Source: an uncultured Bacteroidales bacterium (lineage in GTDB: Bacteria; Bacteroidota; Bacteroidia; Bacteroidales; VadinHA17). From it: a DNA stretch of 64,000 nt. This document shows positions 8,797 to 29,791 of the stretch, piece by piece (position 1 is the first letter of the stretch; each line of letters begins with the position of its first letter). Under the pieces are notes generated by a model. That model searched no databases. It was not told the DNA's origin and saw nothing but the letters and a program-made list of their open reading frames with translations. The stretch spans positions 64,509 through 128,508 of the forward strand of contig CAVTAA010000006.1 in the NCBI GenBank assembly GCA_963732575.1, in the 5' to 3' direction. A program made the translations under genes and the position numbers.

Positions 8797-8805
8797 GATG
8801 AACAG

Positions 8806-10773: not shown

Positions 10774-10781
10774 ACCTGAAA

Positions 10782-13134
10782 ATGAATAAAAAATACTGTT
10801 ATTCTGCTGATTATAATCTTATTACTGTTGTCCGGATGCGACTCCGGCCATAAAACAACACATGGAAATATGTAATGTGGTACGACACTCCTGCAGGGGA
10901 ATGGACCGAAGCTCTTCCCATAGGCAACGGCCGGCTCGGGGGAATGCTTTTCGGGAACCCTGCTGCTGAAAGATTACAGGTTAACGAAGAGTCGCTCTGG
11001 GGCGGGATGAATATTCCCAACAACAATCCCGGAGCTCTTGCACACATGCCTGAAATACGCAAGCTGATTCTTGACGGCAGGATACCCGAGGCTTTTGATC
11101 TTTCGGAAAAATACGTTGCCGGCATACCCGGAAAGATCAGGTCATACCAGACACTCGGAGAGATTTGCTTTCAATTTGCCGACACCGACCGGCAAGATCA
11201 CCGACTACCGCCGGGAGCTTAATCTCAGGACCGGCATTGCTAAAGTAAGTTTCAAGAGGGACGGAAACAAAATAGAGTACGAGGTTTACTCATCGGCACC
11301 GGATAATGTACTGGTCATTTCGATGCGATCGAAGAAGGAAGGTGGCCTTGACATGTCAATCTCACTGCAGCGGCAGCAGGATGCTGTCATCAGTGTCATG
11401 GACGGCCGCATAGACATGGAGGGACAGGTGATTGACAGTGACGACCCGGCCCTGGGGCCGGGCGGAGCTCACATGAAGTTCTTTGCCTCCCTCCTTCCAA
11501 CAGCATACGACGGTAAGCTGACACATGACAATAAATCACTGAAATATACCGGAGGAACCGAGCTGGTAATGTTCTTCAATGCAGCTACTGATTATAATGT
11601 TGACAGTCTGAATTTCGACCGCACGATCGATCCGCGAAGGAAGTGCACCGATGCCATCAGCACAGCTTCCTGGAAATCATTTGAGCGTCTGAAGAAAAGT
11701 CATATCGATGAACACTCTTCAATGTTTGACAGGGTCAGCCTGCAAATTGGAAATGACAACAAAGCTGATACCATACCCACTGACGAGCGTCTCAGGAGGT
11801 TCCAGGCAGGCGGAGATGACCCGGGACTCGATCGCACTCTATTTTCAGTACGGACGATACCTGCTGATGGGCTCGTCGCAGACATCCTGCACAGCTCCCT
11901 GCGAACCTCCAGGGTATCTGGAACAAGGATTACTTGGCTCCGTGGGGCTCTGACTACCATGTCAACATCAACCTGCAGATGAATTACTGGCCCGCGGAGG
12001 TATGCAATCTCAGCGAGACTGTCGATCCGGTGGTAACATTTCATGGAAGAGCTTACAGTTCCGGGAAGTGTCACTGCCCGTGAGATGTACGGTGCGAAGG
12101 GATGGACAATGCATCATACCACGGATGTATTCGGCAAGACGGCCGTGATAGACGGCGTTTACTGGGGCATGTTCCCGCTGGGAGGAGCATGGATGACACT
12201 GCCTCTGTGGGAACACTATGAGTTCACAAATGACACCTCCTATCCTGCGTGAGAGAGCTTACCCGGTCATGAAGGGAGCAGCCGACTTTATCAGGACTTT
12301 TCTTTTCACAGATAAAGAGGGGTATCTTGTTACAGCTCCTACTTACTCACCGGAAAACAGTTATATCGATCCGGTCTCCGGTAAAGAATTCAAGCTTACC
12401 TATGCCCCGACAATGGATAACCAGATCATACGGGAGGTTCTCACAAACTGCCAGAAAGCTGCTCAGATACTTAACACTGACACCGGATGGGCTGACAGCC
12501 TTCAGCAGACGCTGGACAAGCTCCCTCCTGTCAGGATTGCTTCCAACGGCACTATAATGGAGTGGATCAGAGGAATATGAAGAGGCTGAGCCCGGTCACA
12601 GGCACATGTCGCATCTCTTCGGGCTGCACCCGGGCACGCAGATCACACCGGATACACCTGATCTCTATGCCGCAGCACGTAAAACGCTTGAACACCGGTT
12701 AGAGAACGGCGGCGGACATACCGGCTGGAGCAGGGCATGGATCATCAATTTCTATGCCCGCCTCCATGACGGAAATGAGAGTTACAAACACCTCAGGCTG
12801 CTGCTTGAAAAATCGACCCTGCCAAATCTCTTTGACAACCACCCGCCATTCCAGATTGACGGAAACTTCGGCGGCACGGCAGGCATAGCCGAGATGCTGC
12901 TGCAGAGTCAAAACGGTGTGGTGAACATACTGCCTGCCCTGCCTGATGCCTGGCCTGCAGGGCTCTGTGACAGGATTGAAAGCCAGGGGTAATTTTGAAG
13001 TTGACATTGAATGGGAAGCAAGGAGAATGAAAGGAAGTCGTGATCAGGTCTTTCTCCGGAGCGCCTCTGACATTGGTCTGCCGAGGTAATAAGGTTTTCA
13101 TGGAGACAGTAAAGGTGTCAACGTACAGGTTTGA
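10782..13134 (+). pseudogene. Glycoside hydrolase family 95 (alpha-L-fucosidase-like) lipoprotein, about 10 frameshifts
   Basis: MWYDTPAGEWTEALPIGNGRLGGMLFG..ERLQVNEESLWGG is the GH95 N-terminus. Further GH95 stretches lie in shifting frames: LYFQYGRYLLMGSS, LPANLQGIWNKDYLAPWGSDYHVNINLQMNYWPAE and [23 protein letters not shown] lipoprotein signal peptide (..LLLLSGC) lies upstream, after the A6 run at 10788-10793. Confidence 0.85.
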
Positions 13135-13146
13135 TAAAGAATTGAA

Positions 13147-13705
13147 ATGGATAAAGTAATTCTTGTTTATTGCACTTAGCCTGCCCGTCATTTACCTTTC
13201 AAAACGGACCCTTTTTGATATAAAAAGTCACGGTTTCCCGCGTTTTTTCAGCTGGGAATGCATTATCGCACTCATCGTGGCAAACTACAAATTCTGGTTT
13301 GTTGAGCCGCTTGTCGGTAAAACAGGTCATTTCGTGGTTACTGCTTGCGATTTCTGTTTACATGGTGATCGCAGGTGTCTTGCTTCTCAGAAGAGCCCGT
13401 AAACCCGGAATAGTAAGGGTAGATGATAAGCTCTTTAAATTTGAGAAGACCACAGAGCTTGTAACTACCGGAATCTTTAAGTATGTAAGGCATCCGCTCT
13501 ACTCGTTCACTGCTGTTTCTTACCTGGGGTATATTACTTCAAGCACCCGACAGTCATCATGACTTTAGTGGCCCTGCTCTCATCGGTCCTTCTCTGGTTT
13601 ACTGCAGTGGGAGACGAAAAGGAGTGTATTGCTTATTTCGGCGACAGCTACAGGGACTATATGAAAGCGAACAAAAAGATTTATACCTTTTGTTATCTGA
13701 AATAA
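13147..13705 (+). pseudogene. Isoprenylcysteine carboxyl methyltransferase (ICMT)/phospholipid methyltransferase family membrane protein, at least 3 frameshifts
   Basis: GIFKYVRHPLYS is the family hallmark, and hydrophobic segments are spread over three frames. The tail ..DEKECIAYFGDSYRDYMKANKK ends at TAA 13703-13705. Confidence 0.65.
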
Positions 13706-13707
13706 GA

Positions 13708-14944
13708 TCAGTACAGCATCCTTACCCGTATTGTTCCTTCAATTGACCGCAGTTCCCTGATGATGCTGCTGTCAAGCGTGCTCTCGGTGTCAATTATCAC
13801 ATAGCCTACTTCAGCGTCAGTCTGAAGATATTCAGCATGCAATGTTTATTCCTTTGGAAGTGAACACATAGTTCACCTCTTTCAGCACCCCCGGTTCATT
13901 CTTATGAATATGGAGGAACCGTTGGGCATTGCAGTTAGGCTGAAGGGATATCTGCACAAAGTTCGTGGCGCCGATCGTGTCTCCGGTGTCGCTGTACCTC
14001 ACCAGCTTCTCAGCCACTTCAGTGCCAATGTTTTCCTGGGCTTCGGTGGTGCTCCCTCCCACATGAGGCGACAGTATGACATTTTCAAACATGCGCAGGT
14101 CCGAGACAAACGTATCTCCGCTTGAAGCCGGTTCATCAGGAAAGACATCAAGAGCAGCTCCCAGGATATGCTCTTCCCTGAGGGCAGATACCAGGGCAGG
14201 GATGTTGACCACCGAACCCCTTGACGCATTGATAAGGCATGACCCTTTCCTCATCAGGCTGATCTCCTTTTTACCTATCATGTCCCGCGTCAGCGGTGTC
14301 TCGGGAACATGGAGAGTGACAACATGAGCAACAGACAGACAGTTCGGCAAGAGAGCCACAGGCGACTGCCTTGCCAAGGCTGAGCTTCTTCACAATATCA
14401 TAATAATAGACATTCATGCCAAGAGCTTCTGCCAGAATCGATACCTGTGATCCAATATGACCGTATCCTATTATACCCAAGGTTCTTACCCCGTACTTCG
14501 ATATGAATTACTTGCTGATTTAAGCCATTTGCCCATGTGAGCCGCAGCATTCTTTGCCGGAATATTACGCATGAGAAGGATGCATTCGGCAATGACAAGC
14601 TCCGCTACCGAGCGTGTGTTGGAAAAAGGAGCATTAAAAACCGGGATGCCCCTGAGCCTGGCAGCACGACCGTCAACCTGGTTGGTGCCAATACTGAAGC
14701 AGCCAATTGCGAAGAGCTTGTCAGCCATGCTCAGCACTTCTTCGGTAATCTCAGTTCGTGAGCGGATCCCGATAATATTTATATTCTTTATTTTATCCTT
14801 CAGCGCAGCATCATCAAGTGAACCTGAACAGGTTTCAATATTTGTGTATCCGTTGGCTGTGAAGAATTCAACTGCACTTTGATGAATTCCTTCCAGTAAC
14901 AGAACTTTAATCTTGTTCTTATCAAGTGAAAACTTCTGAGACAT
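13708..14944 (-). pseudogene. serA: D-3-phosphoglycerate dehydrogenase, 3 frameshifts as sequenced
   Basis: The N-terminal piece 14486..14944 contains IKVLLLEGIHQSAVEFF..GCFSIGTNQVD..IPVFNAPFSNTRSVAELV and is near-colinear with E. coli SerA. The middle pieces contain GIIGYGHIGSQ and NASRGSVV..PHVGGSTTEAQENIG. The ACT-domain tail AEYLQTDAEVGYVIIDTE..GTIRVRMLY lies in a fourth frame and ends at 13708. Confidence 0.9.
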
Positions 14945-15062: not shown

Positions 15063-16409
15063 ATGTTTGAGTGGCTAAGACACTGGCGCTACGGTGACCA
15101 GTATGGTTATGAAACTTTCTTCAGAAAGCAGGACAAAAGAACTGTTGGCAAGCCAGGTATCATCCTGGCTGACCTGGGAATGCCCGAAGCCTATGATGCT
15201 GAGTTCTATACCAAATTCATGGGTCATGTTTTTGCATATTCCCTGCCTCTCTTTCTTCATAAGCTCATTCTGGCTGACAGGGGTATAGCATTGATTGATC
15301 CGTCTAATCCTCTTGCCCGGGAACCGTTCAGTCCCAGCCAGCTGATTGACATGTATGGCTCATTTGTAAACAAGGCAGGTATTCCGTACATAAACTGCAA
15401 AGTAAAATGGTGCCCACCCGGAATGAAAAGGAACCCTTCAGACCATGGATATTTTCTTTATACCGCAGATGGCAGGGGCGGCGCCCCCGAGGTATGCCAG
15501 AAGACGGCTGCAAAAGTCGCCGGCTGGTACTACGGACATCTCCTTCCTGAGAAAAAAGTAGCATGGGAGCATCAGTGCAGGTGCATCTATGATGAAACAG
15601 TTGCGGTACTCAGGAGCGAATTTCCGGGGACAGAATTTTGCCATGCACGTTATACCTATGAGGAATCAGTACTGCAGGCGGTGGAGGAGCTCCTGTCAAA
15701 AGGATGCGAGACTATCATTTATCAATGTTTCTGTAATCCTGTTTACTCTGACTTCGAGGACTATGCTTATGCCCTGCCGATGGTTCACCGTCTAGTCGGT
15801 AAAAGAGCAAAAGTCATCTGTGCCGATCAGCCTGGCAGTCAGCCGGCGATGCGTGAGGCCTATGTGCAGATCGTGCGTGACCGGTTGATGCAAATCCCTG
15901 GCAATCAGAGCATCCTGCTTATCCTCTCAAAGCATGGTCATCCTTTCAGAAAAGATACTATGGATTCAAGGGGGGCTGAGTATCGTGTGCCCCTTGAGAC
16001 AGGGATGAAGCGAGCCCTTGATCAATGGGGAGGAAGATGGAATCTGGTCTGGAGCCAGGATGAATATGCGGATGAATACTGGGATCCCCGTAACAGGAAA
16101 ATTTCAACCTATTCAGCTTACCGAAAAGCTATCGATGAGGGATACGATTATACTATTGAGGTGCCAACCGACTTCATAGCGGAGAACACTGACCTGATGG
16201 TCCTTCATGCATTGAAAAAGTTCACGGCGTTCAAAGTGTATGACCCCTTTGCACCTATTCCTTACACGAATTGGGAAGAACCTCTTGTAAGAACCTTCCA
16301 GGAAGGAAAAACAACTGGAATTTATACTGGCTGCCCGGTTGGCAGGTATCGCCACCATGTGGTCGAAGCAGTCAGCGCTTCCATATCAGAAATTCTGAAG
16401 AATGCATAA
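15063..16409 (+). CDS. Divergent ferrochelatase-fold (class II chelatase-like) protein, function unknown
   Basis: This is an intact 448-aa ORF. GIILADLGMPEAYD..FYTKF resembles the HemH N-terminus (gvLLvNLGtPd). ILLILSKHGHPF aligns with the SAHSLP catalytic-His motif. EVPTDFIAENTDLMVL aligns with PvGFvaDHlEvL. The protein is about 100 aa longer than typical HemH. Confidence 0.55.
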   Translation: MFEWLRHWRYGDQYGYETFFRKQDKRTVGKPGIILADLGMPEAYDAEFYTKFMGHVFAYSLPLFLHKLILADRGIALIDPSNPLAREPFSPSQLIDMYGSFVNKAGIPYINCKVKWCPPGMKRNPSDHGYFLYTADGRGGAPEVCQKTAAKVAGWYYGHLLPEKKVAWEHQCRCIYDETVAVLRSEFPGTEFCHARYTYEESVLQAVEELLSKGCETIIYQCFCNPVYSDFEDYAYALPMVHRLVGKRAKVICADQPGSQPAMREAYVQIVRDRLMQIPGNQSILLILSKHGHPFRKDTMDSRGAEYRVPLETGMKRALDQWGGRWNLVWSQDEYADEYWDPRNRKISTYSAYRKAIDEGYDYTIEVPTDFIAENTDLMVLHALKKFTAFKVYDPFAPIPYTNWEEPLVRTFQEGKTTGIYTGCPVGRYRHHVVEAVSASISEILKNA

Positions 16410-16455
16410 TTAAAGTCGGAAAATATATGACATGTAATAATATAAAACAGCCGAA

Positions 16456-17874
16456 ATGAAAATACTGCTTACCGGGGCGACCGGGTATATCGCTAAAAGA
16501 CTTCTGCCGGTGCTGCTTGCAGAGGGACATCATGTTGTGTGCTGCGTCAGGGATGCTAAAAGATTTAAAACCTCCGGATTAAGAAATGATAACCTGGAAG
16601 TAATTGAGGTTAACTTCCTCGAAAGGTCAACACTTGAACGAATCCCTGAAGATATTGATGCCGCATACTATCTCATCCATTCAATGTCAGCCTCAACGGC
16701 CGATTTTGATTCAATGGAAAAGACGTCTGCAGTTAACTTCAGGGACAGGATCAATAATACACAGGTCAGACAGGTTATCTATCTGAGCGGAATCGTCAAC
16801 ACCGACAAGTTGTCAAAGCACCTGGCATCTCGCAAGGCTGTGGAGGAGGAACTGACCGGGGGCAAATATCATCTCACAACCCTCAGGGCAGGAATAATTC
16901 TTGGTTCAGGCAGCGCCTCCTTTGAAATAATCAGGGATCTTGTTGAAAAACTTCCTGTCATGGTTGCTCCCCGGTGGCTGAATACCAAATCGCAGCCTAT
17001 TGCTATTCAGAACGTCATTGAATATCTCAGCGGCGTGTTGCTCAGGGAAAGTACATTCGATAAAAGCTTTGATATCGGCGGTCCGGATATTATGACTTAC
17101 AAAGAGATGCTCCTGAGATTTGCGGCAGTAAGAAATCTCAGACGCAGGGTGTATGTCGTTCCGGTAATGACACCCAAGCTTTCTTCATACTGGCTCTATT
17201 TTGTCACATCAACATCTTACAAGCTTGCCATCAATCTTGTTGACAGCATGAAAGTTGAGGTCATCTGCCGTGAAAACGATCTCCAGCAGCAACTGAAAAT
17301 CAAGCTGTTGAGTTTTGACGAAGCCGTCAGGGTGGCATTTGAAAAAATCGAAAATCACAATGTAACATCAAGCTGGACCGATGCCCTGTCGACCGCCACT
17401 CTTGAAAAAGGGATTTCAGACCTGATTAAAGTCCCTGAATACGGTTGCCTTTTTGACAGAAGATCCAAAACAATTACTGATGAAGAACTGGTTCTGAACA
17501 GACTGTGGTCCATCGGCGGTAAGACAGGCTGGTATTATGCCAACTGGCTGTGGGGAATAAGGGGTTTTATGGATAAACTGAACGGCGGGGTAGGCCTTCG
17601 CAGGGGCAGAAAGAATGATACCCAGATCGAACCAGGCGATGCACTCGATTTCTGGAGAGTGCTTGTTGCTGACAGAACAGCGAAGAGACTCCTGCTCTAT
17701 GCGGAGATGAAACTTCCGGGAGAGGCATGGCTTGAGTTTAAGATCGAAAATAACACGCTTATCCAGACAGCCACTTTCAGGCCGCTAGGTCTGAAGGGCA
17801 GACTGTACTGGTACTCTGTGATGCCATTTCATGAACTGGTGTTCAGAGGAATGATTAATCGTATAACTGCTTGA
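16456..17874 (+). CDS. NAD(P)H-binding SDR-like protein with C-terminal DUF2867-like domain
   Basis: MKILLTGATGYIAKRLL is a Rossmann GxxGxxG motif. At 472 aa, the C-terminal roughly 170 aa (..WYYANWLWGIRGFMDKLNGGVGLRRGR..) match my recollection of DUF2867. This needs HMM confirmation. Confidence 0.75.
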   Translation: MKILLTGATGYIAKRLLPVLLAEGHHVVCCVRDAKRFKTSGLRNDNLEVIEVNFLERSTLERIPEDIDAAYYLIHSMSASTADFDSMEKTSAVNFRDRINNTQVRQVIYLSGIVNTDKLSKHLASRKAVEEELTGGKYHLTTLRAGIILGSGSASFEIIRDLVEKLPVMVAPRWLNTKSQPIAIQNVIEYLSGVLLRESTFDKSFDIGGPDIMTYKEMLLRFAAVRNLRRRVYVVPVMTPKLSSYWLYFVTSTSYKLAINLVDSMKVEVICRENDLQQQLKIKLLSFDEAVRVAFEKIENHNVTSSWTDALSTATLEKGISDLIKVPEYGCLFDRRSKTITDEELVLNRLWSIGGKTGWYYANWLWGIRGFMDKLNGGVGLRRGRKNDTQIEPGDALDFWRVLVADRTAKRLLLYAEMKLPGEAWLEFKIENNTLIQTATFRPLGLKGRLYWYSVMPFHELVFRGMINRITA

Positions 17875-17972
17875 AATTATCAGATCAAATATTATTTTTG
17901 TTTAATGTGAAAGCCATTATGTTCTGCTGTTAATGCCTCAGCAGGGCAAATCCGGACAGTTAACCACAGATA

Positions 17973-20312
17973 ATGGTACACGGAATGAAGCACCAGCCAT
18001 CAATAAAAAGACTGAGAGCAGGGCTCAAGTCGGACGAGACAGGTAACAAGGCTAATTCGCTGATATTTCTTCACAGATACGGTTTTAATATCCCACTTAC
18101 TTTTCTTGTCAGCACATATGCTCATGACAGATTCCTTAAGGAGGGTGCGGATTTTCTTGATGAGCTCAGAAATGAGGTATCCGCTCTCCCCGATAAAGTT
18201 TATGCTGTCCGCTCTTCAACAACTGCTGAAGATTCTCCGGAGTATAGTTTTGCCGGGCAGTTTCAGACCCTGATTAACATAAGCGGCACTGAAAAAATTC
18301 TTGAAGCGATAAAGACTGTCTGGGCATCTGCCTCATTGTTGAATGATAACGAATATCTAAAGAGAACCAGGATCTCCTCGCTCAGATGCGCAGTCATAAT
18401 TCAGGAAATGATACCCGCCGTACTGGCCGGCGTCAGCTTCAGCCGCAATCCCGTTACAAACCAGAATGAGATAGTTATTGAAGCTGTTGAGGGTGCCGGT
18501 GAGGATCTGGTGCAGAAGGGCTACACCCCTCTGCGATGGAGGATCAGAAAGGACTTAATCTTTGAAGGGAACGGCCAATACCCTCTCTTTTCAGTCATCA
18601 GGCAGGTATCGGCAGACACAGCCCGGCTCAGACGTTACTATGGCAATCATATTGACATAGAATGGGTGTATGACGGGAAACAGCTCTATTATCTGCAGCT
18701 GCGCCAGATAACAGGCAGAAAGGAGATGCAGATCTATTCGAACAAGATGGCCAAGGAGATGCTGCCCGGTCAGATCAAGCCGCTGGTATGGTCTGTCAAC
18801 ATCCCGATGGTGAACGGCACCTGGATACAACTGCTTGAAGAGATTACCGGACCCCTGGAAATAAAACCTGAAGATCTGGTAAAACAATTCTACTATCAAA
18901 TGTACCTCAACACTGCCGCACTGGGGAAAATATTCAGTGAGTTCGGAATGTCAGCTGACAGCCTTGAGCAGCTCATGATCAGAGATGAAAAGTCAAGCCA
19001 TTCGTTCAAACCCGGTCTGAAAACCCTGAGGCATACATTCAGGATAATTAAGTTCGTGGCTGCAAAGATGCGTTTTGAAAAGATATTCCTGGCTGAATAC
19101 TCTGAGCTTAAAGCGAAATCCACCTTTTATGATGGAATGCTGAGAAAAGATTTGTCCATTGACTCTTATCCTGAAATCTATTCGATGCTTTTTAATACCG
19201 GAAAGAGGCTGGCATATCTGAATATAGTGGCGCCGATGCTGATGACAATGCACCACAAGAGACTGAAGAGCAAACTGAAAGAGCTTCATCTTGATTATGA
19301 CAAGATTGATTTCAGACCAGATTTCCCTGAATTGACATCCTTCTCCCCTGTTCCGCTCATTGACAGTATAAGGAAAGAGATCGGGAAGCTGCCGCCTGTG
19401 ATCAGAGAGCAATGCACAACTCTTGAAAAGCTCAGATCCTTCAGGGAAGCAGACAACATAAGCAGCAGTATTGACAGGTTAATTAAGGATTTCGGCCATC
19501 TCAGCGAAAGCGGCAATGATTTTTCATATCCCAAATGGGAAGAGGATCACGAAATGGTTTTCCATTTAATCAGGTCATCTTCTGAACATGAATCAAAATC
19601 AGAACTTGACAGCCTTGATAAAATCCGCCGGAGAGGTGTAAAGATCGCTCCTTCCTTGTATAAGAGCTATATGAAAGCCGGCAGATACAAAGTGTATCGC
19701 GAACAGATCAGCTCTTTATATATTTACGGTTACGGCCTTTTCCGAAGGCTCTTCCTGTACCTGGGAAAGGAGTTTGCCGCCAGGCGGATCATCAATAACG
19801 AAAATGACATCTTTTACCTGAAAAAAGAGGAAATAGACAGCATCCTTGAGAATTTTTCCAAGCCTGACATTACCTGTTATAATGATGTTATACAACAGCG
19901 GAAGTCAGAGATGGAAGAGACAAAAGACATCGTACTTCCTCCGGTTATCTATGGTGATGACGCTCCACTCCCTGCAAATGACAAGTCTAAGAATCATTCC
20001 GGGACAGGGACTTCTCCGGGAACCTACACGGGGAAGACAAGGGTGGTGAAAAGCATCAGTGATTTCGATGCCGTCACCAATGGTGATGTTCTGCTTATCC
20101 CCTTTTCAGATGTGAGCTGGACCCCGGTGCTGGCCAGGGCCGGTGCAATTGTCTCAGAAACAGGCGGAATGCTCTCACACTGTTCTATCATAGCCAGGGA
20201 GATGGGGATACCTGCACTTGTTTCCGTACCTAACGCATGCATTATAGGTAACGGAATGAAAGTTACAGTCAACGGATCAAATGGAATATTAACCCTGCAC
20301 GATTATGAATGA
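17973..20312 (+). CDS. PEP/pyruvate-binding (PPDK_N ATP-grasp) protein with C-terminal PEP-utilising swivel-His domain; PEP synthase / rifampicin-phosphotransferase-like architecture
   Basis: The ORF is 779 aa. The N-terminus reads GNKANSL..VRSSTTAEDSPEYSFAGQFQT and the C-terminus reads GDVLLIPFSDVSWTPVL..ETGGMLSHCSIIAREMGIPALV (phospho-histidine motif). There is no C-terminal TIM-barrel PEP-binding domain. Confidence 0.85.
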   Translation: MVHGMKHQPSIKRLRAGLKSDETGNKANSLIFLHRYGFNIPLTFLVSTYAHDRFLKEGADFLDELRNEVSALPDKVYAVRSSTTAEDSPEYSFAGQFQTLINISGTEKILEAIKTVWASASLLNDNEYLKRTRISSLRCAVIIQEMIPAVLAGVSFSRNPVTNQNEIVIEAVEGAGEDLVQKGYTPLRWRIRKDLIFEGNGQYPLFSVIRQVSADTARLRRYYGNHIDIEWVYDGKQLYYLQLRQITGRKEMQIYSNKMAKEMLPGQIKPLVWSVNIPMVNGTWIQLLEEITGPLEIKPEDLVKQFYYQMYLNTAALGKIFSEFGMSADSLEQLMIRDEKSSHSFKPGLKTLRHTFRIIKFVAAKMRFEKIFLAEYSELKAKSTFYDGMLRKDLSIDSYPEIYSMLFNTGKRLAYLNIVAPMLMTMHHKRLKSKLKELHLDYDKIDFRPDFPELTSFSPVPLIDSIRKEIGKLPPVIREQCTTLEKLRSFREADNISSSIDRLIKDFGHLSESGNDFSYPKWEEDHEMVFHLIRSSSEHESKSELDSLDKIRRRGVKIAPSLYKSYMKAGRYKVYREQISSLYIYGYGLFRRLFLYLGKEFAARRIINNENDIFYLKKEEIDSILENFSKPDITCYNDVIQQRKSEMEETKDIVLPPVIYGDDAPLPANDKSKNHSGTGTSPGTYTGKTRVVKSISDFDAVTNGDVLLIPFSDVSWTPVLARAGAIVSETGGMLSHCSIIAREMGIPALVSVPNACIIGNGMKVTVNGSNGILTLHDYE

Positions 20313-21081
20313 GGTAACAGCATTTCTTGAAAGCCACCCGCTGCTGCTTGTCCTTATTTGCAGCCTGATCGGCTACCTGCTTGGATCAATCTCCTTTGCC
20401 AGAATTGTATATCGTAACGTGACGAAGGGCAAGGATCTTGAATTCTACTCTGAACCGATTGAAGGCACTGATGAAAAATTCGATTCTGACTTTGTAAGCG
20501 CAACACTCGTTAATAAACGGATAGGCGCAAAGTACGGCTGCCTGACCTCACTTGCAGATATGCTCAAAGTCGCACTGCCCACTCTGATCGCAAAACTTGC
20601 TTTCACATCAGAACCGTATTTTCTTATCATCCCCATTTTTGGAATACTTGGCCACTACCTACCTGTGTATCATAACTTTATCGGAGGAAGGGGTGAGACA
20701 ATCATGATGGGTGCAATGTTTGTTGTGAATTGGCTCGGAACGATCATCGTCTTTGCTGTCTCAACCATTCTGGGATTTGTCACCGGCAGTGTGATAGTGC
20801 TCCGTTATGCAGGCTATTTCCTGATGATATTCTGGCTTTGGCATCACTATGGTGACTACCGTTACGGTCTGTTTATGTTCATTCTGTACGGGCTTTTTTG
20901 GTTTTCCATGCGAAAGGAAATCGCTTTGCTGATTACGCTTCGTAAAAAAGGGCTATGGAATGATACCAACGAGCAGCTTTCAGAAAAGATGTATATGGGA
21001 AGAGATATTGGAAGAGCTATTGACAATTACAGCATTCCGTCCCTGTACAAAAAGCTCAAAGCAGGTAAAAAATCGCACTGA
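20305..21081 (+). CDS. PlsY-like (G3P acyltransferase family) integral membrane protein, divergent
   Basis: The 258-aa membrane protein has GYLLGSISFARIV and GHYLPVYHNFIGGRGETI, which parallel the PlsY motifs GYLLGSIPF and GHiFPvflgFkGGKGvAT. The SGNxGATN-type motif is not recognisable. The gene overlaps the upstream dikinase-like gene by 8 nt. Confidence 0.55.
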   Translation: MNEVTAFLESHPLLLVLICSLIGYLLGSISFARIVYRNVTKGKDLEFYSEPIEGTDEKFDSDFVSATLVNKRIGAKYGCLTSLADMLKVALPTLIAKLAFTSEPYFLIIPIFGILGHYLPVYHNFIGGRGETIMMGAMFVVNWLGTIIVFAVSTILGFVTGSVIVLRYAGYFLMIFWLWHHYGDYRYGLFMFILYGLFWFSMRKEIALLITLRKKGLWNDTNEQLSEKMYMGRDIGRAIDNYSIPSLYKKLKAGKKSH

Positions 21082-21086
21082 AACAG

Positions 21087-22238
21087 ATGAAAAGAATTGT
21101 CCCGGTCCTTCTGTTATTCCTGTTGTGCAGCTCTCAGCACATTACAGCACAAAAAGCCGGTATCAGCCTTGATAACCAGATCAGTACCTGGCTGGGAATG
21201 AATTATGTCGACAAGGTCTACTGGCAGGCAGGCGCCAGATATATACCGACATTAAACCCCTTCCTGAATCTCAACAAGAAAAGCAAAATTGATGCTGAAC
21301 TTTCTCTCAATACTTACGGTAACCTGCTATTCACCGAAGCAGACTATGACACTGTTCTTTATGACCTGAAACCTTATCGTCTATGGCTCAGATATTCTGC
21401 ATCAAACCTGGAAATAAGGGCCGGGCTTCAAAAGATTACCTTCGGTTCTGCAACGATTATGAGACCGCTGATGTGGTTTGACAATATTGACGTGAGGGAC
21501 CCGCTCCAGCTCACGGAAGGTGTCTATTCCCTGCTCGGACGCTATTATTTCAATAATAATATAAATATCTGGCTGTGGACCCTTTACGGAAACAAAAACA
21601 AAAAAGGATGGGAAGTTGTCCCCTCTGTTTATGAAATACCCGAGTTTGGCGGGAGACTGCAGCTTCCTGTGCCGAAAGGTGAAATGGGTTTTAGTTACCA
21701 TCACCGGATTGCTGATTATTCAGAATTGTATGCCGGCAACCCCCTTATCACCGAAACAGATTTTTCAGAACAGATGATAGGTCTTGACGGCAAATGGGAT
21801 ATCGGACCCGGTATATGGTTCGAGGGAGTCGTAAAACTGAATGATAAGGATAATCAGACTCTAAACAGGTGGGAGACATATTACACAATAGGCATCGACT
21901 ATACCTTTGCTATCGGCAACGGACTTAACGTTGCTTCCGAGTTTTTTCATTATTCGAACAATATCGATGATGAACAGCTGAGGGCCACACAGAACTTCTC
22001 AACACTGTCGCTGAACTACCCTCTCTTTCTTTCTCACAGTCTGTCATGCCTTGTATATTACAACTGGGACGCGGAGGAATGGTACAGGATGTTAAACCTC
22101 CAGCTTAAGTACAATTATGTAAGTTTGAACCTTATGGCATTCTGGAATCCCGATAAATTTACAATATTCACCGGAGAAAGCGACAGCAATACCTTCGCCG
22201 GGAAAGGGTTTCAGCTTATGCTTGTTGTTGACATATAA
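21087..22238 (+). CDS. Putative outer-membrane beta-barrel protein (signal peptide), unknown family
   Basis: The signal peptide is MKRIVPVLLLFLLCSSQHITAQ. The 383-aa protein is rich in alternating aromatic/polar stretches (RLWLRYSASNLEIRAGLQKITFG, ETYYTIGIDYTFAIGNGLNVASEFFHY). I recognise no family. Confidence 0.45.
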   Translation: MKRIVPVLLLFLLCSSQHITAQKAGISLDNQISTWLGMNYVDKVYWQAGARYIPTLNPFLNLNKKSKIDAELSLNTYGNLLFTEADYDTVLYDLKPYRLWLRYSASNLEIRAGLQKITFGSATIMRPLMWFDNIDVRDPLQLTEGVYSLLGRYYFNNNINIWLWTLYGNKNKKGWEVVPSVYEIPEFGGRLQLPVPKGEMGFSYHHRIADYSELYAGNPLITETDFSEQMIGLDGKWDIGPGIWFEGVVKLNDKDNQTLNRWETYYTIGIDYTFAIGNGLNVASEFFHYSNNIDDEQLRATQNFSTLSLNYPLFLSHSLSCLVYYNWDAEEWYRMLNLQLKYNYVSLNLMAFWNPDKFTIFTGESDSNTFAGKGFQLMLVVDI

Positions 22239-22254
22239 GTTAAATATCACACAA

Positions 22255-22956
22255 ATGGATAGCGAAAAGATCATCACAATTGAAGGCCTTAAGAAGCATT
22301 TCCCGATGGGCAGCGGAACATTCACCGCGCTGAACGGCATTGATCTGAATTTTGGCCGGGGTGAATTTGCCGGCATTATCGGCCCGAGTGGTTCGGGAAA
22401 GACAACCCTACTGAACATAATAGGTTCGCTTGACGTGCCGTCAGAGGGAAAAGCAGTGATCCTGAATCAGTCAGTCGGAAGCCTGAGCCCGGCAGCCTCT
22501 GCCTCACTGCGCAAAACGCAGCTTGGTTTTATTTTCCAGACATATAATCTCTTCCAGGTGTACACCGTATTTGAAAATGTGGAATTTCCTCTCCTGCTGC
22601 AGGGAATAGAAACGTCAAAGAGAAAACAGATGGTGCTCGACGCGCTTGAATGGGTCGGCCTGACGGATAAAATCAAGTCCCGCCCGGCCCAGCTCTCCGG
22701 CGGGGAGTGCCAGAGGGTGGCAATCGCCCGGGCCATGGTCAAGAAACCTGCTGTTGTCCTGGCTGATGAGCCGACAGCTAACCTTGACGCTGCCAACTCG
22801 CATCATATACTTAAAACCATGGAGAAGCTCAACCGCGAGCTTAATACAACTTTCATTTTTGCAACCCATGATGAAAAGGTGATCAGCTATGTCAGAAGGA
22901 AAATCTACCTCGCAGACGGCAGAGTGGCAAAAGATGAGATAATTGAAAAAAACTGA
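22255..22956 (+). CDS. ABC transporter ATP-binding protein, LolD/MacB-type
   Basis: Walker [11 protein letters not shown]-loop FIFQTYNL, signature [14 protein letters not shown] and Walker B VVLADEPT are present. I prefer ATG 22255 ([12 protein letters not shown]) to the TTG at 22222. Confidence 0.9.
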
Positions 22957-22971
22957 GCGGAGGACAAGAAT

Positions 22972-24144
22972 ATGCTCGCTTTTAAACTTGCACTGAGAAA
23001 CCTCCTGGGAGCAGGATTACGCACATGGCTTAATGTCATAGTACTTTCCTTCTCATTTATAATCATCATTTGGACCAAAGGACTGCTGGAAGGATGGGAC
23101 CGGCAGGCAAAGAATGATATGATCAGCTGGGAGGTGGCAGGAGGTCAGTACTGGCACCAAAACTATGACCCCTATGATCCTTTCACTCTTTCTGACAGCC
23201 ACGGACCGGTGCCGCAGGAATTATCGACCCGGGTAAGTGATTCTTCTGTTATCCCCGTACTTATCACCCAGGGAACCATTTATCCTCAGGGAAGAATGCA
23301 CTCCGTGATTATCAAAGGCATTGCGCCGGAACAGAAAGTTGTAGAGCTGCCGACTGCAATGATGAAGGCTGAGGAAGGAGAGATACCTGCAATTATTGGC
23401 AAGGCGATGGCTCAGAGTACAGGATTAAAGGTAGATGATTATGTCACGCTCAGATGGAGAGACAGGAACGGGACTTTTGATGCCACAGAGATCAGGATTG
23501 CTCACGTTTTTGAAACAACTGTACCTACAGCTGATGTTGGCCAGGTGTGGCTTCCTGTTGAAGATCTGCGCAAGATGATGCTGATGCCGGGAGAGGCGAC
23601 TTTATTCATTGCATCTGAAGACCTTGCCGGTGCTCCTGTAACGACGGAGTGGATCTATAAAGACCAGAAAACTCTGCTGTCTGACCTGGAGAAGATAATC
23701 AAATCAAAAAGCGCGGTTGGCGTTATTATCTGGGGCATTATGCTTCTGATGGCCATGCTTGCAGTATTTGATACTCAGGTTTTGTCAATCTTCAGAAGAC
23801 AGAAGGAGATAGGGACCTATGTGGCCCTCGGAATGACAAGAGGCCAGGTTGTGGGATTGTTCACACTGGAAGGAGCCATGCATTCAGTGCTTGCAGCTCT
23901 GGTAGGAGCCGTCTATGGGATCCCTCTTTTGATGCTTCAGTCTGCCAGGGGAGTCAAAATACCTCTGAGCAGCAGCGACTTCGGAATATCCATGGCTGAG
24001 AGGCTGTACCCGGTATACAGCCTGGCGCTTATTACAGGAACTGTTGCCATCGTGTTCCTCGTAACAACCCTTGTCAGTTACTGGCCGTCACGAAAAATAG
24101 CTAAAATGAATCCAACAGAAGCGTTGAGAGGGAGGATACAATGA
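22972..24144 (+). CDS. FtsX/MacB-like ABC permease (first of two)
   Basis: The 390-aa protein has an N-terminal TM helix, a large periplasmic domain and a C-terminal FtsX-type 3-TM bundle ending ..SYWPSRKIAKMNPTEALRG. Confidence 0.8.
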   Translation: MLAFKLALRNLLGAGLRTWLNVIVLSFSFIIIIWTKGLLEGWDRQAKNDMISWEVAGGQYWHQNYDPYDPFTLSDSHGPVPQELSTRVSDSSVIPVLITQGTIYPQGRMHSVIIKGIAPEQKVVELPTAMMKAEEGEIPAIIGKAMAQSTGLKVDDYVTLRWRDRNGTFDATEIRIAHVFETTVPTADVGQVWLPVEDLRKMMLMPGEATLFIASEDLAGAPVTTEWIYKDQKTLLSDLEKIIKSKSAVGVIIWGIMLLMAMLAVFDTQVLSIFRRQKEIGTYVALGMTRGQVVGLFTLEGAMHSVLAALVGAVYGIPLLMLQSARGVKIPLSSSDFGISMAERLYPVYSLALITGTVAIVFLVTTLVSYWPSRKIAKMNPTEALRGRIQ

Positions 24145-25415
24145 TCAGATTTCTCTTTAAAGGACTCATCAGGGACAAGCACAGAAGCCTTATCCCGTTT
24201 CTCGTTACCGCTTCGGGAGTAATGCTTACTGTTATATTCCACGCATGGATGACAGGAGTAATTGGCAACAGTATTGAGTTTAATGCACGCTTTTCTGCCG
24301 GGCATGTTAAAATCATGACCAGGGCGTACGCCGAAAATGCCACCCAATCACCTAACGATCTTGCCATCCTGGGAACTGACACACTCACAGGCATAATAGC
24401 ATCTAAATGGCCGGAGATGGAGTTTGCAGAGCGTATTTACTTCGCCGGCATTGTTGACGTACCCGATCAGTCGGGGGAGACAAAAGCACAGGGACCCGCT
24501 ATGGGCTTCGGGATTGACATGCTGTCAGGCAGTATGGCTGAAACGAACCGCCTCAATATCCCTTCATCGCTTAAGACCGGCAGGCTGCCGGAGAAAAATG
24601 ATGAAGTCCTTCTGAGCAAAGAATTCGCTGATAAGCTGGGCCTCAATCCCGGTGACAAGATAACACTTGTGGGCTCAAGCATGTATGGTGAACTTACAAT
24701 GCATAATTTCATTCTGAGCGGTACTGTGGAATTCGGTACCACGGCTCTTGACAGGGGTACCATCATCGCAGATATTGAAGATGTCAGAGAGGCACTTAAT
24801 ATGTATGATGCCTCTGGCGAAATACTCGGATTCTTCCGCGCAGGAACATATGATGATGAACAGGCCAGGGCAATAACAACAAGCTTCAACCAATTGTTTT
24901 CATTTGAATCAGATGAGTTCTCTCCTGTAATGAGGAGTCTGTCACAGGACAAAACAATGGGATTCCTGGTTGAATACTCCGGTAAGCTGCAGGGCCTGCT
25001 GGTTGCTGTTTTTATTATTTCCATGTCGCTCATACTGTGGAATGCAGGCCTTCTCGGAGGACTGAGAAGATACGGGGAGTTCGGAATGCGGCTGGCAATC
25101 GGTGAAGAAAAAGGTCATGTTTACAGGACAATGATGATGGAATCTTTCCTGATCGGATTGTTCGGATCAATTGCAGGTGTCGCCGGCGGGATTATAGTGG
25201 CATTGTATCTCCAAAATCACGGAGTTGACCTGGGCTTTATGATGAAGAATGCTTCCATTATGATGCCCCGCGTGTTCAGAGCACATATTACTCCTGAAAC
25301 ATGGTATATTGGTTTAATCCCAGGTTTCGTTTCAACACAGCTTGGCACTATGCTTGCAGGTATCGGTATTTATAAACGCCAGACCGCACAACTTTTTAAA
25401 GAACTTGAGGCATGA
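24141..25415 (+). CDS. FtsX/MacB-like ABC permease (second of two)
   Basis: The 424-aa protein has the same topology as the preceding gene, with a 4-nt overlap at each end. Confidence 0.8.
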   Translation: MIRFLFKGLIRDKHRSLIPFLVTASGVMLTVIFHAWMTGVIGNSIEFNARFSAGHVKIMTRAYAENATQSPNDLAILGTDTLTGIIASKWPEMEFAERIYFAGIVDVPDQSGETKAQGPAMGFGIDMLSGSMAETNRLNIPSSLKTGRLPEKNDEVLLSKEFADKLGLNPGDKITLVGSSMYGELTMHNFILSGTVEFGTTALDRGTIIADIEDVREALNMYDASGEILGFFRAGTYDDEQARAITTSFNQLFSFESDEFSPVMRSLSQDKTMGFLVEYSGKLQGLLVAVFIISMSLILWNAGLLGGLRRYGEFGMRLAIGEEKGHVYRTMMMESFLIGLFGSIAGVAGGIIVALYLQNHGVDLGFMMKNASIMMPRVFRAHITPETWYIGLIPGFVSTQLGTMLAGIGIYKRQTAQLFKELEA

Positions 25416-26155
25416 AAAAACTGATTTTCACTTTTATATTGATACTGACCGGGTTCAGCGCTGTCAATGCGCAATACCCCGATGGAAAAGCCATACTGCT
25501 GAAAATTGACCAGAACCTTTCATCGGAGAACCGCATCTTTCTTTCATCCATGATAATTCACGGACGGAGAAGCACACATACTGTGAAAATGAAAACATGG
25601 ACTGCCGGTGAGAAGAGATCATTCACTGAGTATCTTTTTCCGGCACGCGAGCAGGGAACCAAGATGCTGAAGCTTGAAGACCAGATGTGGATCTACTCTC
25701 CGGAAGCCGACCGGATAATTCAGATCGCCGGGCACATGCTGCGCCAGTCGGTAATGGGTTCTGATCTCTCCTATGAGGACCTCATGGAAGACAGCAGGCT
25801 GACAGACCGTTACAACGCAGAAGTGACCGGGACAGAAACTGTTGACGGACGAATCTGCTGGGTTGTTGACCTTAAGGCTTTCGTGCCTGAGATTGCATAC
25901 CAGGGAATGAAAATATGGGTAGACCAGGATCGGAATATTCCTCTTCGCGAAGAGATGTACGCCAAAAGCGGAACACTGCTTAAACGGACCGAACTTTCAA
26001 ATGTTGAACTCATAAACAAGCGGTGGTACCCGAAAAAGATCCTCTTCAAGGATATGCTTAAAGAAGGAATGGGTACTGAGCTGATTGTTGAAGATATTCA
26101 GTTCAATGTGCCTATCGCTGACCACATCTTTTCAAAGGCCAGCCTCAAGAAATAG
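25412..26155 (+). CDS. LolA-like outer membrane lipoprotein-sorting protein family
   Basis: The protein has a signal peptide and a body (..KMKTWTAGEKRSFTEYLFPAREQGTKMLKLEDQMWIYSPEADRIIQI..MGSDLSYEDL..) typical of the LolA_like / outer membrane lipoprotein-sorting proteins that accompany FtsX-type ABC systems. Confidence 0.8.
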   Translation: MKKLIFTFILILTGFSAVNAQYPDGKAILLKIDQNLSSENRIFLSSMIIHGRRSTHTVKMKTWTAGEKRSFTEYLFPAREQGTKMLKLEDQMWIYSPEADRIIQIAGHMLRQSVMGSDLSYEDLMEDSRLTDRYNAEVTGTETVDGRICWVVDLKAFVPEIAYQGMKIWVDQDRNIPLREEMYAKSGTLLKRTELSNVELINKRWYPKKILFKDMLKEGMGTELIVEDIQFNVPIADHIFSKASLKK

Positions 26156-26256: not shown

Positions 26257-27183
26257 TTATTGTTTTTTGTCAACCGGTGCTGAAAGTGGCTTTGACTGAA
26301 TATAGGTTACTGAACTGTCAGTACTAAGGGTCAGGTCAAAGCAGACACCTTCCTCCGTCTCACCCTTAAGAAAATATGCCAGCCACGGGATAAGATACCT
26401 GGTCAGAATACGAAGCTGCTCCTCCCCGCTGATGCCAGGTGTGCAGCGTGCCATCTTTTCTCCCGTTATACACTTTGGATGACTGACACCCATCTGACAA
26501 TGTGTGCCTCCGGTAATCAGTATATATGTTTTATCAGGACTGGCGGAAGCGTTGTATAAAGGAACCTGATGCTTTTCTGCCGGTGTAATGCAGTCATTGC
26601 TGCCGGCAATGATGAGAGTGGGAGCTGTCACTGAGGCTGCTGCCCTGATGGAAGAAGTTCTGGTCTCAAGTGGCGCCAGGCCAACAACTGCGTCGATGTC
26701 CGTATTCATTTCTGCCCCGAGAAACAGTGAACCCCCTCCCATGCTGTGACCCATCAGGCACTTTGCAGTATCAATGCGGTTATACAAAAAGAACGAACTG
26801 TCAGTCCCAAGCCTGCTGATCTCATCCAATGCGAAACATAAATCTTCACCAAGAGTTTTATGAGACGGAAACAACCCGTCCTCACTGTTCGGAAATACCA
26901 ATATATATCCCTGTGGTACAAGAATATCGACAATATGCTGATACCAGACTCCCGACAGAAGATAACCATGGCCAAAACATATAAGCGGATACTTTTCATT
27001 ATTCCGCACTGTATTTGAACTGCTGTCTCCAATGTTCATTTCAGGATAAAAGATCTCCACGGGTATTTTCCGGTTTCTGCGTGAGGTATCCTTAAGAGTA
27101 ATTGAAGAGTGGCCTGCATTGTAACCCTGCGAGGCAATATCCGCGCAGAAAAGCATCGCAGCAATTAGAAATAATCCTCTCAT
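26257..27183 (-). CDS. Secreted alpha/beta hydrolase, dienelactone-hydrolase/cutinase (PETase-like) type
   Basis: This is an intact 308-aa ORF with signal peptide MRGLFLIAAMLFCADIASQ. The nucleophile elbow is MGHSMGGGSLF. VTAPTLIIAGSNDCITP supplies the Asp and ITGGTHCQ supplies the His. The protein is colinear with polyesterase/cutinase-like enzymes. Confidence 0.8.
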   Translation of the reverse strand: MRGLFLIAAMLFCADIASQGYNAGHSSITLKDTSRRNRKIPVEIFYPEMNIGDSSSNTVRNNEKYPLICFGHGYLLSGVWYQHIVDILVPQGYILVFPNSEDGLFPSHKTLGEDLCFALDEISRLGTDSSFFLYNRIDTAKCLMGHSMGGGSLFLGAEMNTDIDAVVGLAPLETRTSSIRAAASVTAPTLIIAGSNDCITPAEKHQVPLYNASASPDKTYILITGGTHCQMGVSHPKCITGEKMARCTPGISGEEQLRILTRYLIPWLAYFLKGETEEGVCFDLTLSTDSSVTYIQSKPLSAPVDKKQ

Positions 27184-27300: not shown

Positions 27301-28276
27301 ATGAAAATTGCTGTTACCGGCGCTTCAGGGCATGTGGGCGCCAACCTGTGCAGATTGCTGATTGACCAGGGTCATGAGGTTAAAGCTCTGATACACAATA
27401 GCACAAAAGGCATTGAGGATCTTGGTCTCGAATTTGTTCACGGTGAAATTAACAGTGAAGCTGATCTCAGAAAACTCTGTTCAGGCTGTGAAATAGTATT
27501 TCATCTTGCGGCTTGCATCAGCATCAGGAAAAACGATAATAATTGCCGGAAAATAAATACAGACAGTTGTGTTACCCTGCTCAAAGCAGCAAAGGCTGAA
27601 GGGGTCAGAAAAATAATTCATTTCAGTTCAATACATGCCTATGACCAGGAGCCTCTTGACATTGAACTGGATGAAACACGAAGCCTTGCCCTGGAAGGCG
27701 GGGCATCATATGAAAGATCAAAAGCTCTGGGGCAGAAGATAATGATTGAGGCATCATCACCCGGGCTTGAGGTGGTTGTGCTTAAATCCGACAGCAATAA
27801 TAGGACCTAATGATTTTCAGCCATCCCTGCTCGGTAATGCAATCATCAGGTTCTTCAAAGGCCAGAACCCGAGCCTGCTGCCCGGTGGATATAACTGGGT
27901 TGACGTCAGGGATGTATGCACTGCCGCAATAAATGCCATAGAACTGGGTGTTCCGGGAGAAAGTTATTTACTTGGAGGAAGCTGGCAAAGCCTGAAGACA
28001 ATGGCTGCAACAATTGAAAAACTTGGAGGTCATAAAGCTCCGTGGCTATGTCTGCCGATGTCAATAGCGTATCTTGGCGCGATATTTCTGAACCTCCATG
28101 CCACCGTCACAAAGAGTGTTCCGTTATATACTGCAATGTCGCTTGAAACACTGAAGCAAGGACACAGGAATATCTCAAGCAGAAAGGCGACGAAGGCTCT
28201 TGGCTTCTCACCACGTCCTTTTGAAGAGACCATGGCAGATACATTAAACTGGTTTAAGGAAAACAAATATATCTAA
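27301..28276 (+). pseudogene. NAD-dependent epimerase/dehydratase (dihydroflavonol-4-reductase-like SDR), one frameshift
   Basis: MKIAVTGASGHVGANLCRLL is a Rossmann motif. Fragments 27301..27810 and 27746..28276 join as ..GLEVVVLNPTAIIGPND.. if one A is removed from AAA at 27784-27786. Confidence 0.8.
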
Positions 28277-29038: not shown

Positions 29039-29062
29039 ATTTAACGGTACATAATTTCAATC

Positions 29063-29786: not shown

Positions 29787-29791
29787 AAAAG

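Follow-up and report, generated by a model that had tools for sequence, protein, structure and literature searches.

The 64,000-nucleotide window analysed here (positions 64,509 to 128,508 of contig CAVTAA010000006.1, assembly GCA_963732575.1, from an uncultured Bacteroidales bacterium of the VadinHA17 lineage) contains an overlapping pair of genes, encoding a dikinase of the rifampicin phosphotransferase (Rph) type (17973..20312, plus strand) and a membrane protein related to the acyltransferase PlsY (20305..21081, plus strand). The linkage of the two genes across genomes is far beyond chance, and the membrane protein, as judged from alignments and a predicted model, is a PlsY by its fold and not by the residues that define PlsY function. 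We favour, at a probability of roughly 35%, the reading that the pair provides a third route to acyl-phosphate, which feeds an acyl transfer to an acceptor other than glycerol 3-phosphate (G3P), with a fatty acid as the acid and with export of the product as an envelope lipid.

Relatives were collected in a scan of one genome per species, which yielded 435. The best 80 loci, every one from a metagenome-assembled genome (MAG), were used, and locus counts refer to the 79 non-redundant loci among them, searched by tblastn with the proteins of the window. The hosts of these 80 loci belong to Bacteroidales/Rikenellaceae, Chloroflexota/Anaerolineae, KSB1 and Acidimicrobiia, with one further bin labelled Thermotogae; all carriers found are uncultured. 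In Chloroflexota loci of high GC content the simple open reading frame (ORF) caller yielded spurious antisense genes (clusters c17, c19 and c20), which is why counts for such loci were taken from tblastn and not from gene calls.

At the junction ATGAATGA the start codon ATG of the PlsY-like gene (20305) precedes the stop codon TGA of the kinase gene (20310-20312), confirming the 8-nt overlap that an initial annotation of the window had reported; the identical overlap was found in 33 loci. The same annotation had proposed to look for the adjacency in relatives, and it recurs across at least two phyla: the kinase gene lies immediately upstream of the PlsY-like gene in 50 of the 79 loci (38 of 39 in Bacteroidota) and a kinase homologue is present within 10 kb in 68. 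In Chloroflexota 11 loci have the kinase gene directly upstream, and another 16 have it within 10 kb. Some MAGs carry more than one such locus. MFD00032.bin.3.335 contains two complete operons (L011 and L030) with different PlsY-like alleles, and the pairs L045/L076 and L059/L062 likewise represent two PlsY-like loci per MAG with differing alleles; a kinase homologue accompanies both members of the first pair, and none was found at L059 or L062. These duplicates suggest paralogous systems of differing specificity.

Membership of the membrane protein in the PlsY superfamily, another point that had been marked for checking, is borne out both by sequence model (PF02660, 69.0 bits versus a gathering cut-off of 24.1) and by fold. 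The protein stays below the PlsY equivalog TIGR00023 (63.6 versus 137.2 bits). Its AlphaFold2 (AF2) model, built on 31 homologues, reaches a predicted local distance difference test (pLDDT) score of 90.2 and adopts the seven-helix PlsY fold. Foldseek returned five Aquifex aeolicus PlsY entries (5XJ5-5XJ8) as the sole significant matches in the Protein Data Bank (PDB), with a probability of 1.0 and a target-normalised TM-score (TMt) of 0.70-0.76. A beta-hairpin insert at about residues 41-62 and a C-terminal amphipathic extension are additional to this fold. In an exhaustive profile search with the PlsY-like family, 156 clusters (50% identity) were obtained at E<=1e-30 compared to 8,285 at E<=1e-3, which makes the subfamily a small branch of the PlsY superfamily.

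For the assignment of individual residues the family was aligned onto Aquifex and E. coli PlsY and the roles of the residues were taken from the literature, so that the mapping rests on sequence alignments and the predicted model. In Aquifex PlsY, T41, A40, H92 and loop 3 contact the acyl-phosphate, while S35, R45, H177 and N180 contact G3P; exchange of the clamp residues S35, R45, K104 or N180 for alanine costs more than 92% of the activity and the conservative exchange R45K more than 90% (PMC5700162). The acyl-phosphate half-site is retained in the window protein, where H92 corresponds to H117, the GGKG loop to GGRG 127-130 and A40/T41 to A66/T67. Within the family H117, G127, G128 and G130 are invariant, A66 is nearly so, and position 67 is occupied by Thr or Ser in nearly every member and by Asn in a few distant ones. 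At the position of K104 the window protein carries Arg, and distant members, which have GGYG or GGSG, vary here. The G3P half-site, on the other hand, is lost: S35 is variable, R45 is replaced by K, M, V or L, H177 by R203 or a hydrophobic residue, N180 by I206 or another hydrophobic residue, and S142 of the G3P pocket by Tyr or Trp. Furthermore, N37, the proposed oxyanion stabiliser, and N42 are absent. Motif 1 reads SDFVSATLVNK in the window instead of SGNVGATNVTR, with D.VSAT.V as the family consensus. The initial annotation had called the SGNxGATN motif unrecognisable, and the sequence does depart from it, but the motif is degenerate (SDFVSATL) and not absent. Its suggestion that the acceptor or the donor may differ is strengthened by the alignment, in which the acyl-phosphate half-site is kept and the G3P half-site lost.

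Two further observations concern the history of this gene. The nucleotide identity of the window to its closest relatives (L012 and L030) amounts to 80-90% over the operon and drops to 51-68% exactly across the PlsY-like gene (20250..21150). The PlsY-like protein of the window instead shows 65-73% identity to its counterparts in L005-L010, loci in which the kinase identity is just 54-65%. From the sequences it looks like the PlsY-like allele was swapped by recombination within a conserved operon, and specificity may be determined by the PlsY-like gene. In one Chloroflexota MAG (L087) the C-terminus of a canonical-type PlsY (WKHRED) is encoded a few kb from the PlsY-like gene, which marks the latter as an extra paralogue there. 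This C-terminus belongs to a divergent row of genes (7492..10383, minus strand, of that locus) that also includes a CrtD/CrtI-family carotenoid desaturase and a GT2 glycosyltransferase and adjoins the cluster of kinase, ferrochelatase-fold (FCH), PlsY-like and ABC genes. Two apparent fusions of the PlsY-like protein (P0366, 622 aa; P0367, 381 aa) turned out to be read-throughs into the downstream 383-aa gene and were discarded as uninformative about domain fusion.

The 779-aa ORF of the kinase matches PF01326 (PPDK_N, 130.8 bits) and PF00391 (PEP-utilizers, 68.1 bits), a Pfam scan gave no match to the TIM barrel PF02896 in it, and the protein stops right after the swivel domain. The architecture described before, ATP-grasp plus C-terminal swivel-His domain without TIM barrel, is therefore correct, as are the coordinates of the ORF; the length of 779 aa probably is not. 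All close homologues (about 120) comprise 775 aa, and hence the second ATG at 17985 is probably the true start, giving a 775-aa product. The closest solved relatives are the structures 5FBS/5HV1 of the Listeria rifampicin phosphotransferase, with which the segment GGMLSHCSIIAREMGIPALV can be aligned. The swivel-His motif GGMLSHCSIIARE is also alignable to that of the Listeria enzyme, its histidine H736 (nt 20178) falling on the motif histidine of the 5FBS swivel domain, numbered H825. Homologues of the kinase carry the precomputed annotation PF27448 (Rph_4th), and the motifs YSNKMAKEMLPGQIKPLVWSVNIP and FGHLSESGNDFS.PKWEE of the central substrate-binding domain are kept from Bacteroidota to Chloroflexota. 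Evidently, no characterised enzyme is an orthologue of the kinase, which remains far below the equivalog cut-offs of Rph (NF041857, 178.6 versus 999 bits; NF000283, 111.7 versus 1700), of the prodiginine ligases PigC/RedH in NCBIfam (196.6 versus 1300 and 197.6 versus 1350) and of phosphoenolpyruvate (PEP) synthase and PPDK (TIGR01418, 165.5 versus 739.75; TIGR01828, 55.7 versus 843). Orthology with an antibiotic phosphotransferase, an outcome that the initial annotation had named as speaking against its proposal, is thereby rejected as well.

A third partner is encoded upstream of the kinase (15063..16409, plus strand), namely a cytoplasmic protein of 448 aa without signal peptide, here called FCH448. 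Searched as a single sequence, it has no match in the PDB; only the family profile and the predicted fold give matches. The sequence models PF00762 (Ferrochelatase, 16.4 versus 27 bits, E=0.005) and TIGR00109 (21.7 versus 124.6) are missed. The top 41 Foldseek matches of its AF2 model (pLDDT 87) in the PDB are all ferrochelatases (CpfC/HemH), with TMt values of about 0.7 and E values from 1e-10 to 4e-07. In the family profile SKH291GHPF is aligned with the SAHS motif of ferrochelatases and FIAENTD377 with FVxEHLE. The invariant H291 is thereby aligned with the catalytic histidine of SAHS (H183 in B. subtilis), and the likewise invariant D377 takes, as placed by motif, the position of the catalytic glutamate E264. 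Longer homologues of FCH448 contain no informative extra domain. At other loci a second chelatase-fold family of about 410 aa (FCH410), with matches to Ferrochelatase, CbiX and CfbA, takes this position; one relative of it, in L085, clears PF00762 (42.6 bits). FCH448 and FCH410 share only about 17% identity, yet H291, G292, P294 and D377 are common to both. A gene of one type or the other is present in 37 of the 79 loci, in the order FCH-kinase-PlsY-like or kinase-FCH-PlsY-like, and its recurrence with the other two genes makes the trio the conserved unit. FCH448 itself is 66-68% identical between Bacteroidales and Anaerolineae (L068, 3401..4744; P0160 and P0169), whereas identities between these groups reach only about 26-40% for the kinase and the PlsY-like protein. 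Exceptionally tight constraint, horizontal transfer or mis-binning could account for such high identity across phyla.

The initial annotation had treated kinase and PlsY-like gene as a two-gene unit, which is too narrow: the pair sits within a conserved system of nine to ten genes. In the window this is an operon of nine tightly packed genes on the plus strand (15063..26155) plus a convergent hydrolase gene beside it. Between FCH448 and the kinase lies a 472-aa fusion of an NAD(P)-binding short-chain dehydrogenase/reductase (SDR) with DUF2867 (16456..17874; PF13460/PF01370/PF05368; PF11066, 108 bits), an accessory gene seen in 16 loci, a subset of the Bacteroidales loci. The 258-aa PlsY-like protein is followed by a secreted 383-aa protein with signal peptide, possibly an outer-membrane component (21087..22238), for which searches of Pfam, NCBIfam and the PDB gave no match, whether with the sequence itself or with a profile of its family. 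Its family is well conserved (motif RAGLQKI.FGSA..(L/M)RPLMWFD..D.RDPLQLT.G); the gene occurs in 32 loci, always after the PlsY-like gene in Bacteroidota, and is read through from the PlsY-like gene in P0366.

The remaining genes of the operon constitute a predicted export module. They encode an ABC ATPase of LolD/MacB type (22222..22956; PF00005; probable start ATG 22255, 233 aa), two permeases with FtsX domain, the first of MacB/LolC type (22972..24144; PF02687, 53.8 bits) and the second overlapping each neighbouring gene by 4 nt (24141..25415; PF02687, 51.6 bits), and a periplasmic LolA-like carrier with signal peptide (25412..26155; PF17131 LolA_like, 193 bits). Cut-offs of the Lol equivalogs are missed by the ATPase (TIGR02211 LolD, 226 versus 307.75 bits) and by the permeases (TIGR02212, 52 for permease 1 and 34 for the other, versus 362), and the carrier fails the LolA1 and LolA3 models. 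MacB-type ABC genes were found in 48 loci, and 28 loci contain the LolA-like gene. The ABC genes are accompanied by the LolA-like carrier and the 383-aa secreted protein in Bacteroidota and by a HlyD-type adaptor in Chloroflexota. Convergent with the operon, a secreted alpha/beta hydrolase resembling esterases of the PETase, chlorophyllase and PAF-AH type is encoded (26257..27183, minus strand; PF12740, 75.6 bits; PF07224, 30.9 bits). Its position is conserved in 29 loci; elsewhere the slot holds a PGAP1/Palm_thioest-like hydrolase or a GDSL lipase with a type IX secretion system (T9SS) tail, so that esterases of three unrelated families occur beside the pair.

In the flanks (10761..14944 and 27301..31898) genes are broken by frameshifts or internal stops, while the 11-kb operon between them is intact. 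The broken genes encode a GH95 glycosidase, a PEMT/ICMT-like protein, a SerA-like dehydrogenase, an HpnA-like epimerase, a steroid-5-alpha-reductase-family protein, an uncharacterised 247-aa protein and an S9 peptidase. Either the surroundings of a cluster under selection are genuinely decaying, or the quality of the assembly is uneven. A scan for sigma-70 promoters and terminators gave nothing informative, as expected for Bacteroidota.

While folds, residue conservation and gene linkage are documented above, the chemistry at a carboxylate is what we infer. In the first step of the favoured relay the cytoplasmic dikinase would convert ATP to AMP and Pi, and its swivelling phospho-His736 would pass phosphate to the carboxylate group of an acid associated with the membrane. 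A free fatty acid is the simplest choice for this acid, perhaps released by the co-encoded esterase, and the ferrochelatase-fold protein might hold or present it in analogy to FakB, which does so for FakA. The three-domain architecture that the kinase shares with Rph and HapC supports such a relay, being a layout used for hydrophobic small molecules. Further points in its favour are the conserved coupling of the two genes, the PlsY fold with its retained acyl-phosphate contacts, and the recurrence of three esterase families, MacB-type ABC genes and the LolA-like gene around the pair. In the second step the PlsY-like protein would bind the acyl-phosphate in its phosphate hole (H117 and the GGRG loop) and at the carbonyl site A66/T67, and would pass the acyl group to an acceptor. 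This acceptor should be other than G3P, as the residues that clamp G3P are missing and mostly have hydrophobic ones in their place; the hydrophobic character of many of these positions makes a hydrophobic acceptor probable. In the third step, by homology, the ABC transporter of MacB/LolCDE type would pull the product from the inner membrane and hand it to the LolA-like carrier, from which it would reach the outer membrane and the 383-aa secreted protein there, with MacB and the HlyD-type adaptor in the Chloroflexota version instead.

Several points weigh against this relay. We know of no characterised PPDK_N/swivel-His kinase that phosphorylates a carboxylate, and none was found in the literature. 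In eight loci with adequate flanks (Chloroflexota, Acidimicrobiia) the kinase is missing within 10 kb. The loss of N37, on which acyl transfer by PlsY is proposed to rely for stabilisation of the oxyanion, and the lack of conservation at K104 in distant members do not favour an acyl transferase. Moreover, a ferrochelatase-fold partner with an apparently intact pair of histidine and acid is not explained by a fatty-acid model, and export by MacB-type transporters sits uneasily with secreted esterases, which would fit scavenging better.

The missing N37 is at the same time an argument for the main alternative, which we consider doubtful but worth weighing: the kinase could phosphorylate the hydroxyl group of a hydrophobic alcohol such as a polyprenol, phytol, a sterol-like compound or a glycolipid alcohol. 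The PlsY-like protein would then be no acyltransferase and might perform an alkyl or phosphoryl transfer via the phosphate hole or act as a flippase-like carrier. The known relatives of the kinase agree with this, as Rph, HapC/PigC, HpeHI, phenylphosphate synthase and glucan water dikinase target oxygen atoms of alcohols, phenols, aldehydes or enols, and some Bacteroidales loci contain membrane enzymes of the steroid-5-alpha-reductase family and of HpnA/SdmB-like and PEMT/ICMT-like types. These isoprenoid-type neighbours, however, are confined to close relatives and are decayed in the window. Conservation of T41/A40, which hold the acyl carbonyl in PlsY, speaks against a non-acyl reaction; alkyl phosphates are poor group donors, and such chemistry is not known for any member of the PlsY family.

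The third partner is better accounted for if the substrate is a tetrapyrrole, a reading that we regard as unlikely. The ferrochelatase-fold protein would bind, and perhaps metalate or demetalate, a porphyrin-type molecule at the membrane, the dikinase would phosphorylate one of its propionate side chains and the PlsY-like protein would esterify this to a lipid or alcohol; the lipid-anchored tetrapyrrole would be exported, and the esterases would reverse the ester. Besides the fold itself, the histidine and acid H291 and D377, conserved between two families so distant from each other, and the matches of FCH410 to CbiX and to the nickel chelatase CfbA speak for it. Activation of tetrapyrrole carboxylates as acyl-phosphates has precedent in the amidation and cyclisation reactions of cobalamin and F430 synthesis. 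The pyrrole-handling PigC/RedH are among the best-scoring characterised relatives of the kinase, the esterase is chlorophyllase-like, URO-D is found near one member, and several accessory genes would be explained along with the third partner. Lineage-specific neighbours comprise, apart from SDR-DUF2867, a major facilitator superfamily (MFS) transporter of the PucC family and a BchE-like B12-dependent radical S-adenosylmethionine (radical-SAM) protein. PucC, a bacteriochlorophyll-delivery type, is encoded in four Anaerolineales loci, and the best match of the radical-SAM neighbour is BchE with 196 bits. These accessory genes are, however, lineage-restricted and below equivalog cut-offs (BchE, 196 versus 481 bits), and PF12740 hydrolases are generic esterases. 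The hosts are MAGs of non-phototrophic anaerobe type, from which no lipid-linked tetrapyrrole of this kind is known, and porphyrin-binding residues could not be mapped on FCH448. PucC-family MFS and BchE-like genes beside the kinase or PlsY-like genes were seen in L069-L072, L056, L075, L078, L080 and L083, all from Chloroflexota MAGs of non-phototroph type. An Amino_oxidase neighbour in L087, considered as a protoporphyrinogen oxidase, is the CrtD/CrtI carotenoid desaturase and was dropped as evidence for tetrapyrroles. Somewhat less probable still is the complete scheme for the trio, in which the chelatase-like protein holds a metallo-tetrapyrrole or a similar planar carboxylic acid at the membrane, the dikinase converts it to the acyl-phosphate, the PlsY-family protein esterifies it to a lipid, and the Lol-like machine places the lipid-anchored cofactor or pigment on the cell surface. 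If true, the trio would parallel the attachment of the chlorophyll tail, though on the basis of acyl-phosphate, in non-phototrophic Bacteroidales and Chloroflexota.

It is very unlikely that the cluster is a drug or xenobiotic resistance island, in which a hydrophobic antibiotic would be inactivated by the kinase, hydrolysed by the esterase and expelled by MacB, with the PlsY-like gene as a bystander. The nearest solved structure is indeed a rifampicin phosphotransferase, MacB pumps export macrolides, and the esterases are secreted. Against this stand the score of the kinase (179 bits versus the Rph cut-off of 999), the translational coupling to the PlsY-like gene conserved across phyla, the equally conserved ferrochelatase-fold partner, and the presence of two complete copies (L011 and L030) in a single MAG. 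That the membrane protein is just a divergent housekeeping G3P acyltransferase fed by PlsX, with a meaningless kinase adjacency, is hardly credible: it is a PF02660 member and annotated as PlsY in public sources, but four of six G3P-contact residues are lost, the TIGR00023 cut-off is missed, a canonical-type PlsY is co-resident in L087, modules are duplicated per genome, and the allele seems to have been replaced inside a conserved operon.

Returning to the favoured acyl-phosphate relay, its component families are already known, and the combination together with the chemistry that we propose is new. A literature search retrieved no published description of the kinase/PlsY-like pairing and no PlsY relative with an acceptor other than G3P. 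To our knowledge only two routes to acyl-phosphate have been described, PlsX and fatty acid kinase, and PlsY is regarded as a one-job enzyme. If the relay is real, it would be a third, dikinase-based route to acyl-phosphate, its membrane component would be the first PlsY-family member with a non-G3P acceptor, and its kinase the first carboxylate-directed member of the Rph/PPDK kinase family.

Among known systems PlsX/PlsY and FakAB/PlsY (5XJ5-5XJ9) come closest for the membrane component, with which the seven-helix fold, the GYLxGS N-terminus, D..LK, H92, P....F.GG.G and A40/T41 are common. The joint encoding of a soluble kinase and a membrane acyltransferase is a further parallel to the Fak system. 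The kinase, though, is an ATP-grasp/swivel-His dikinase and neither FakA (Dak2) nor PlsX; a Pfam scan of all cluster proteins gave neither the Dak2 nor the DegV domain of FakA/FakB, and the likeness to Fak is functional only. Compared with canonical PlsY, the protein lacks the G3P clamp (S35, R45, N180 and H177) as well as N37/N42 and has an additional beta-hairpin and an extension at the C-terminus; its gene belongs to an export operon instead of a housekeeping context.

The Listeria rifampicin phosphotransferase (RPH-Lm, 5FBS/5HV1) and PigC/RedH/HapC, all of which act on hydrophobic substrates, have the ATP-grasp domain, the helical substrate domain and the C-terminal swivel His (GGxxSH) in common with the kinase and likewise lack a TIM barrel. 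The kinase differs from them by scores far under the cut-offs, distinct central-domain motifs and a wholly different neighbourhood, and the carboxylate proposed here would be a new substrate group for this family. With the coproporphyrin and protoporphyrin ferrochelatases CpfC/HemH and the class II chelatases CbiX/CfbA, FCH448 has in common the fold of the whole protein and, as far as alignment and motif show, the SAHS histidine and an acidic residue at the E264 position. Unlike these enzymes it has about 140 additional residues and Asp instead of E264, and it misses PF00762 and TIGR00109; its gene stands beside those of a dikinase and a PlsY-like protein and not with genes for heme or cobalamin.

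Finally, the export module resembles LolCDE-LolA and the MacB-type type VII exporters (HrtBA, DevCA, PvdRT) in its composition of one ATPase, two FtsX permeases, a LolA-fold carrier and an outer-membrane component, and in the presumed extraction from the inner membrane. It departs from LolCDE-LolA in that the LolD and LolCE cut-offs are missed, the carrier is of PF17131/TP_0789 type and the last component belongs to the 383-aa family. Furthermore, the cargo of LolCDE-LolA is lipoprotein, whereas the cargo here is presumed to be a lipid. Together with the ferrochelatase-fold partner, this Lol-like module points to an undescribed envelope lipid or lipid-linked cofactor in abundant uncultured Bacteroidales and Chloroflexota of soil and sediment.

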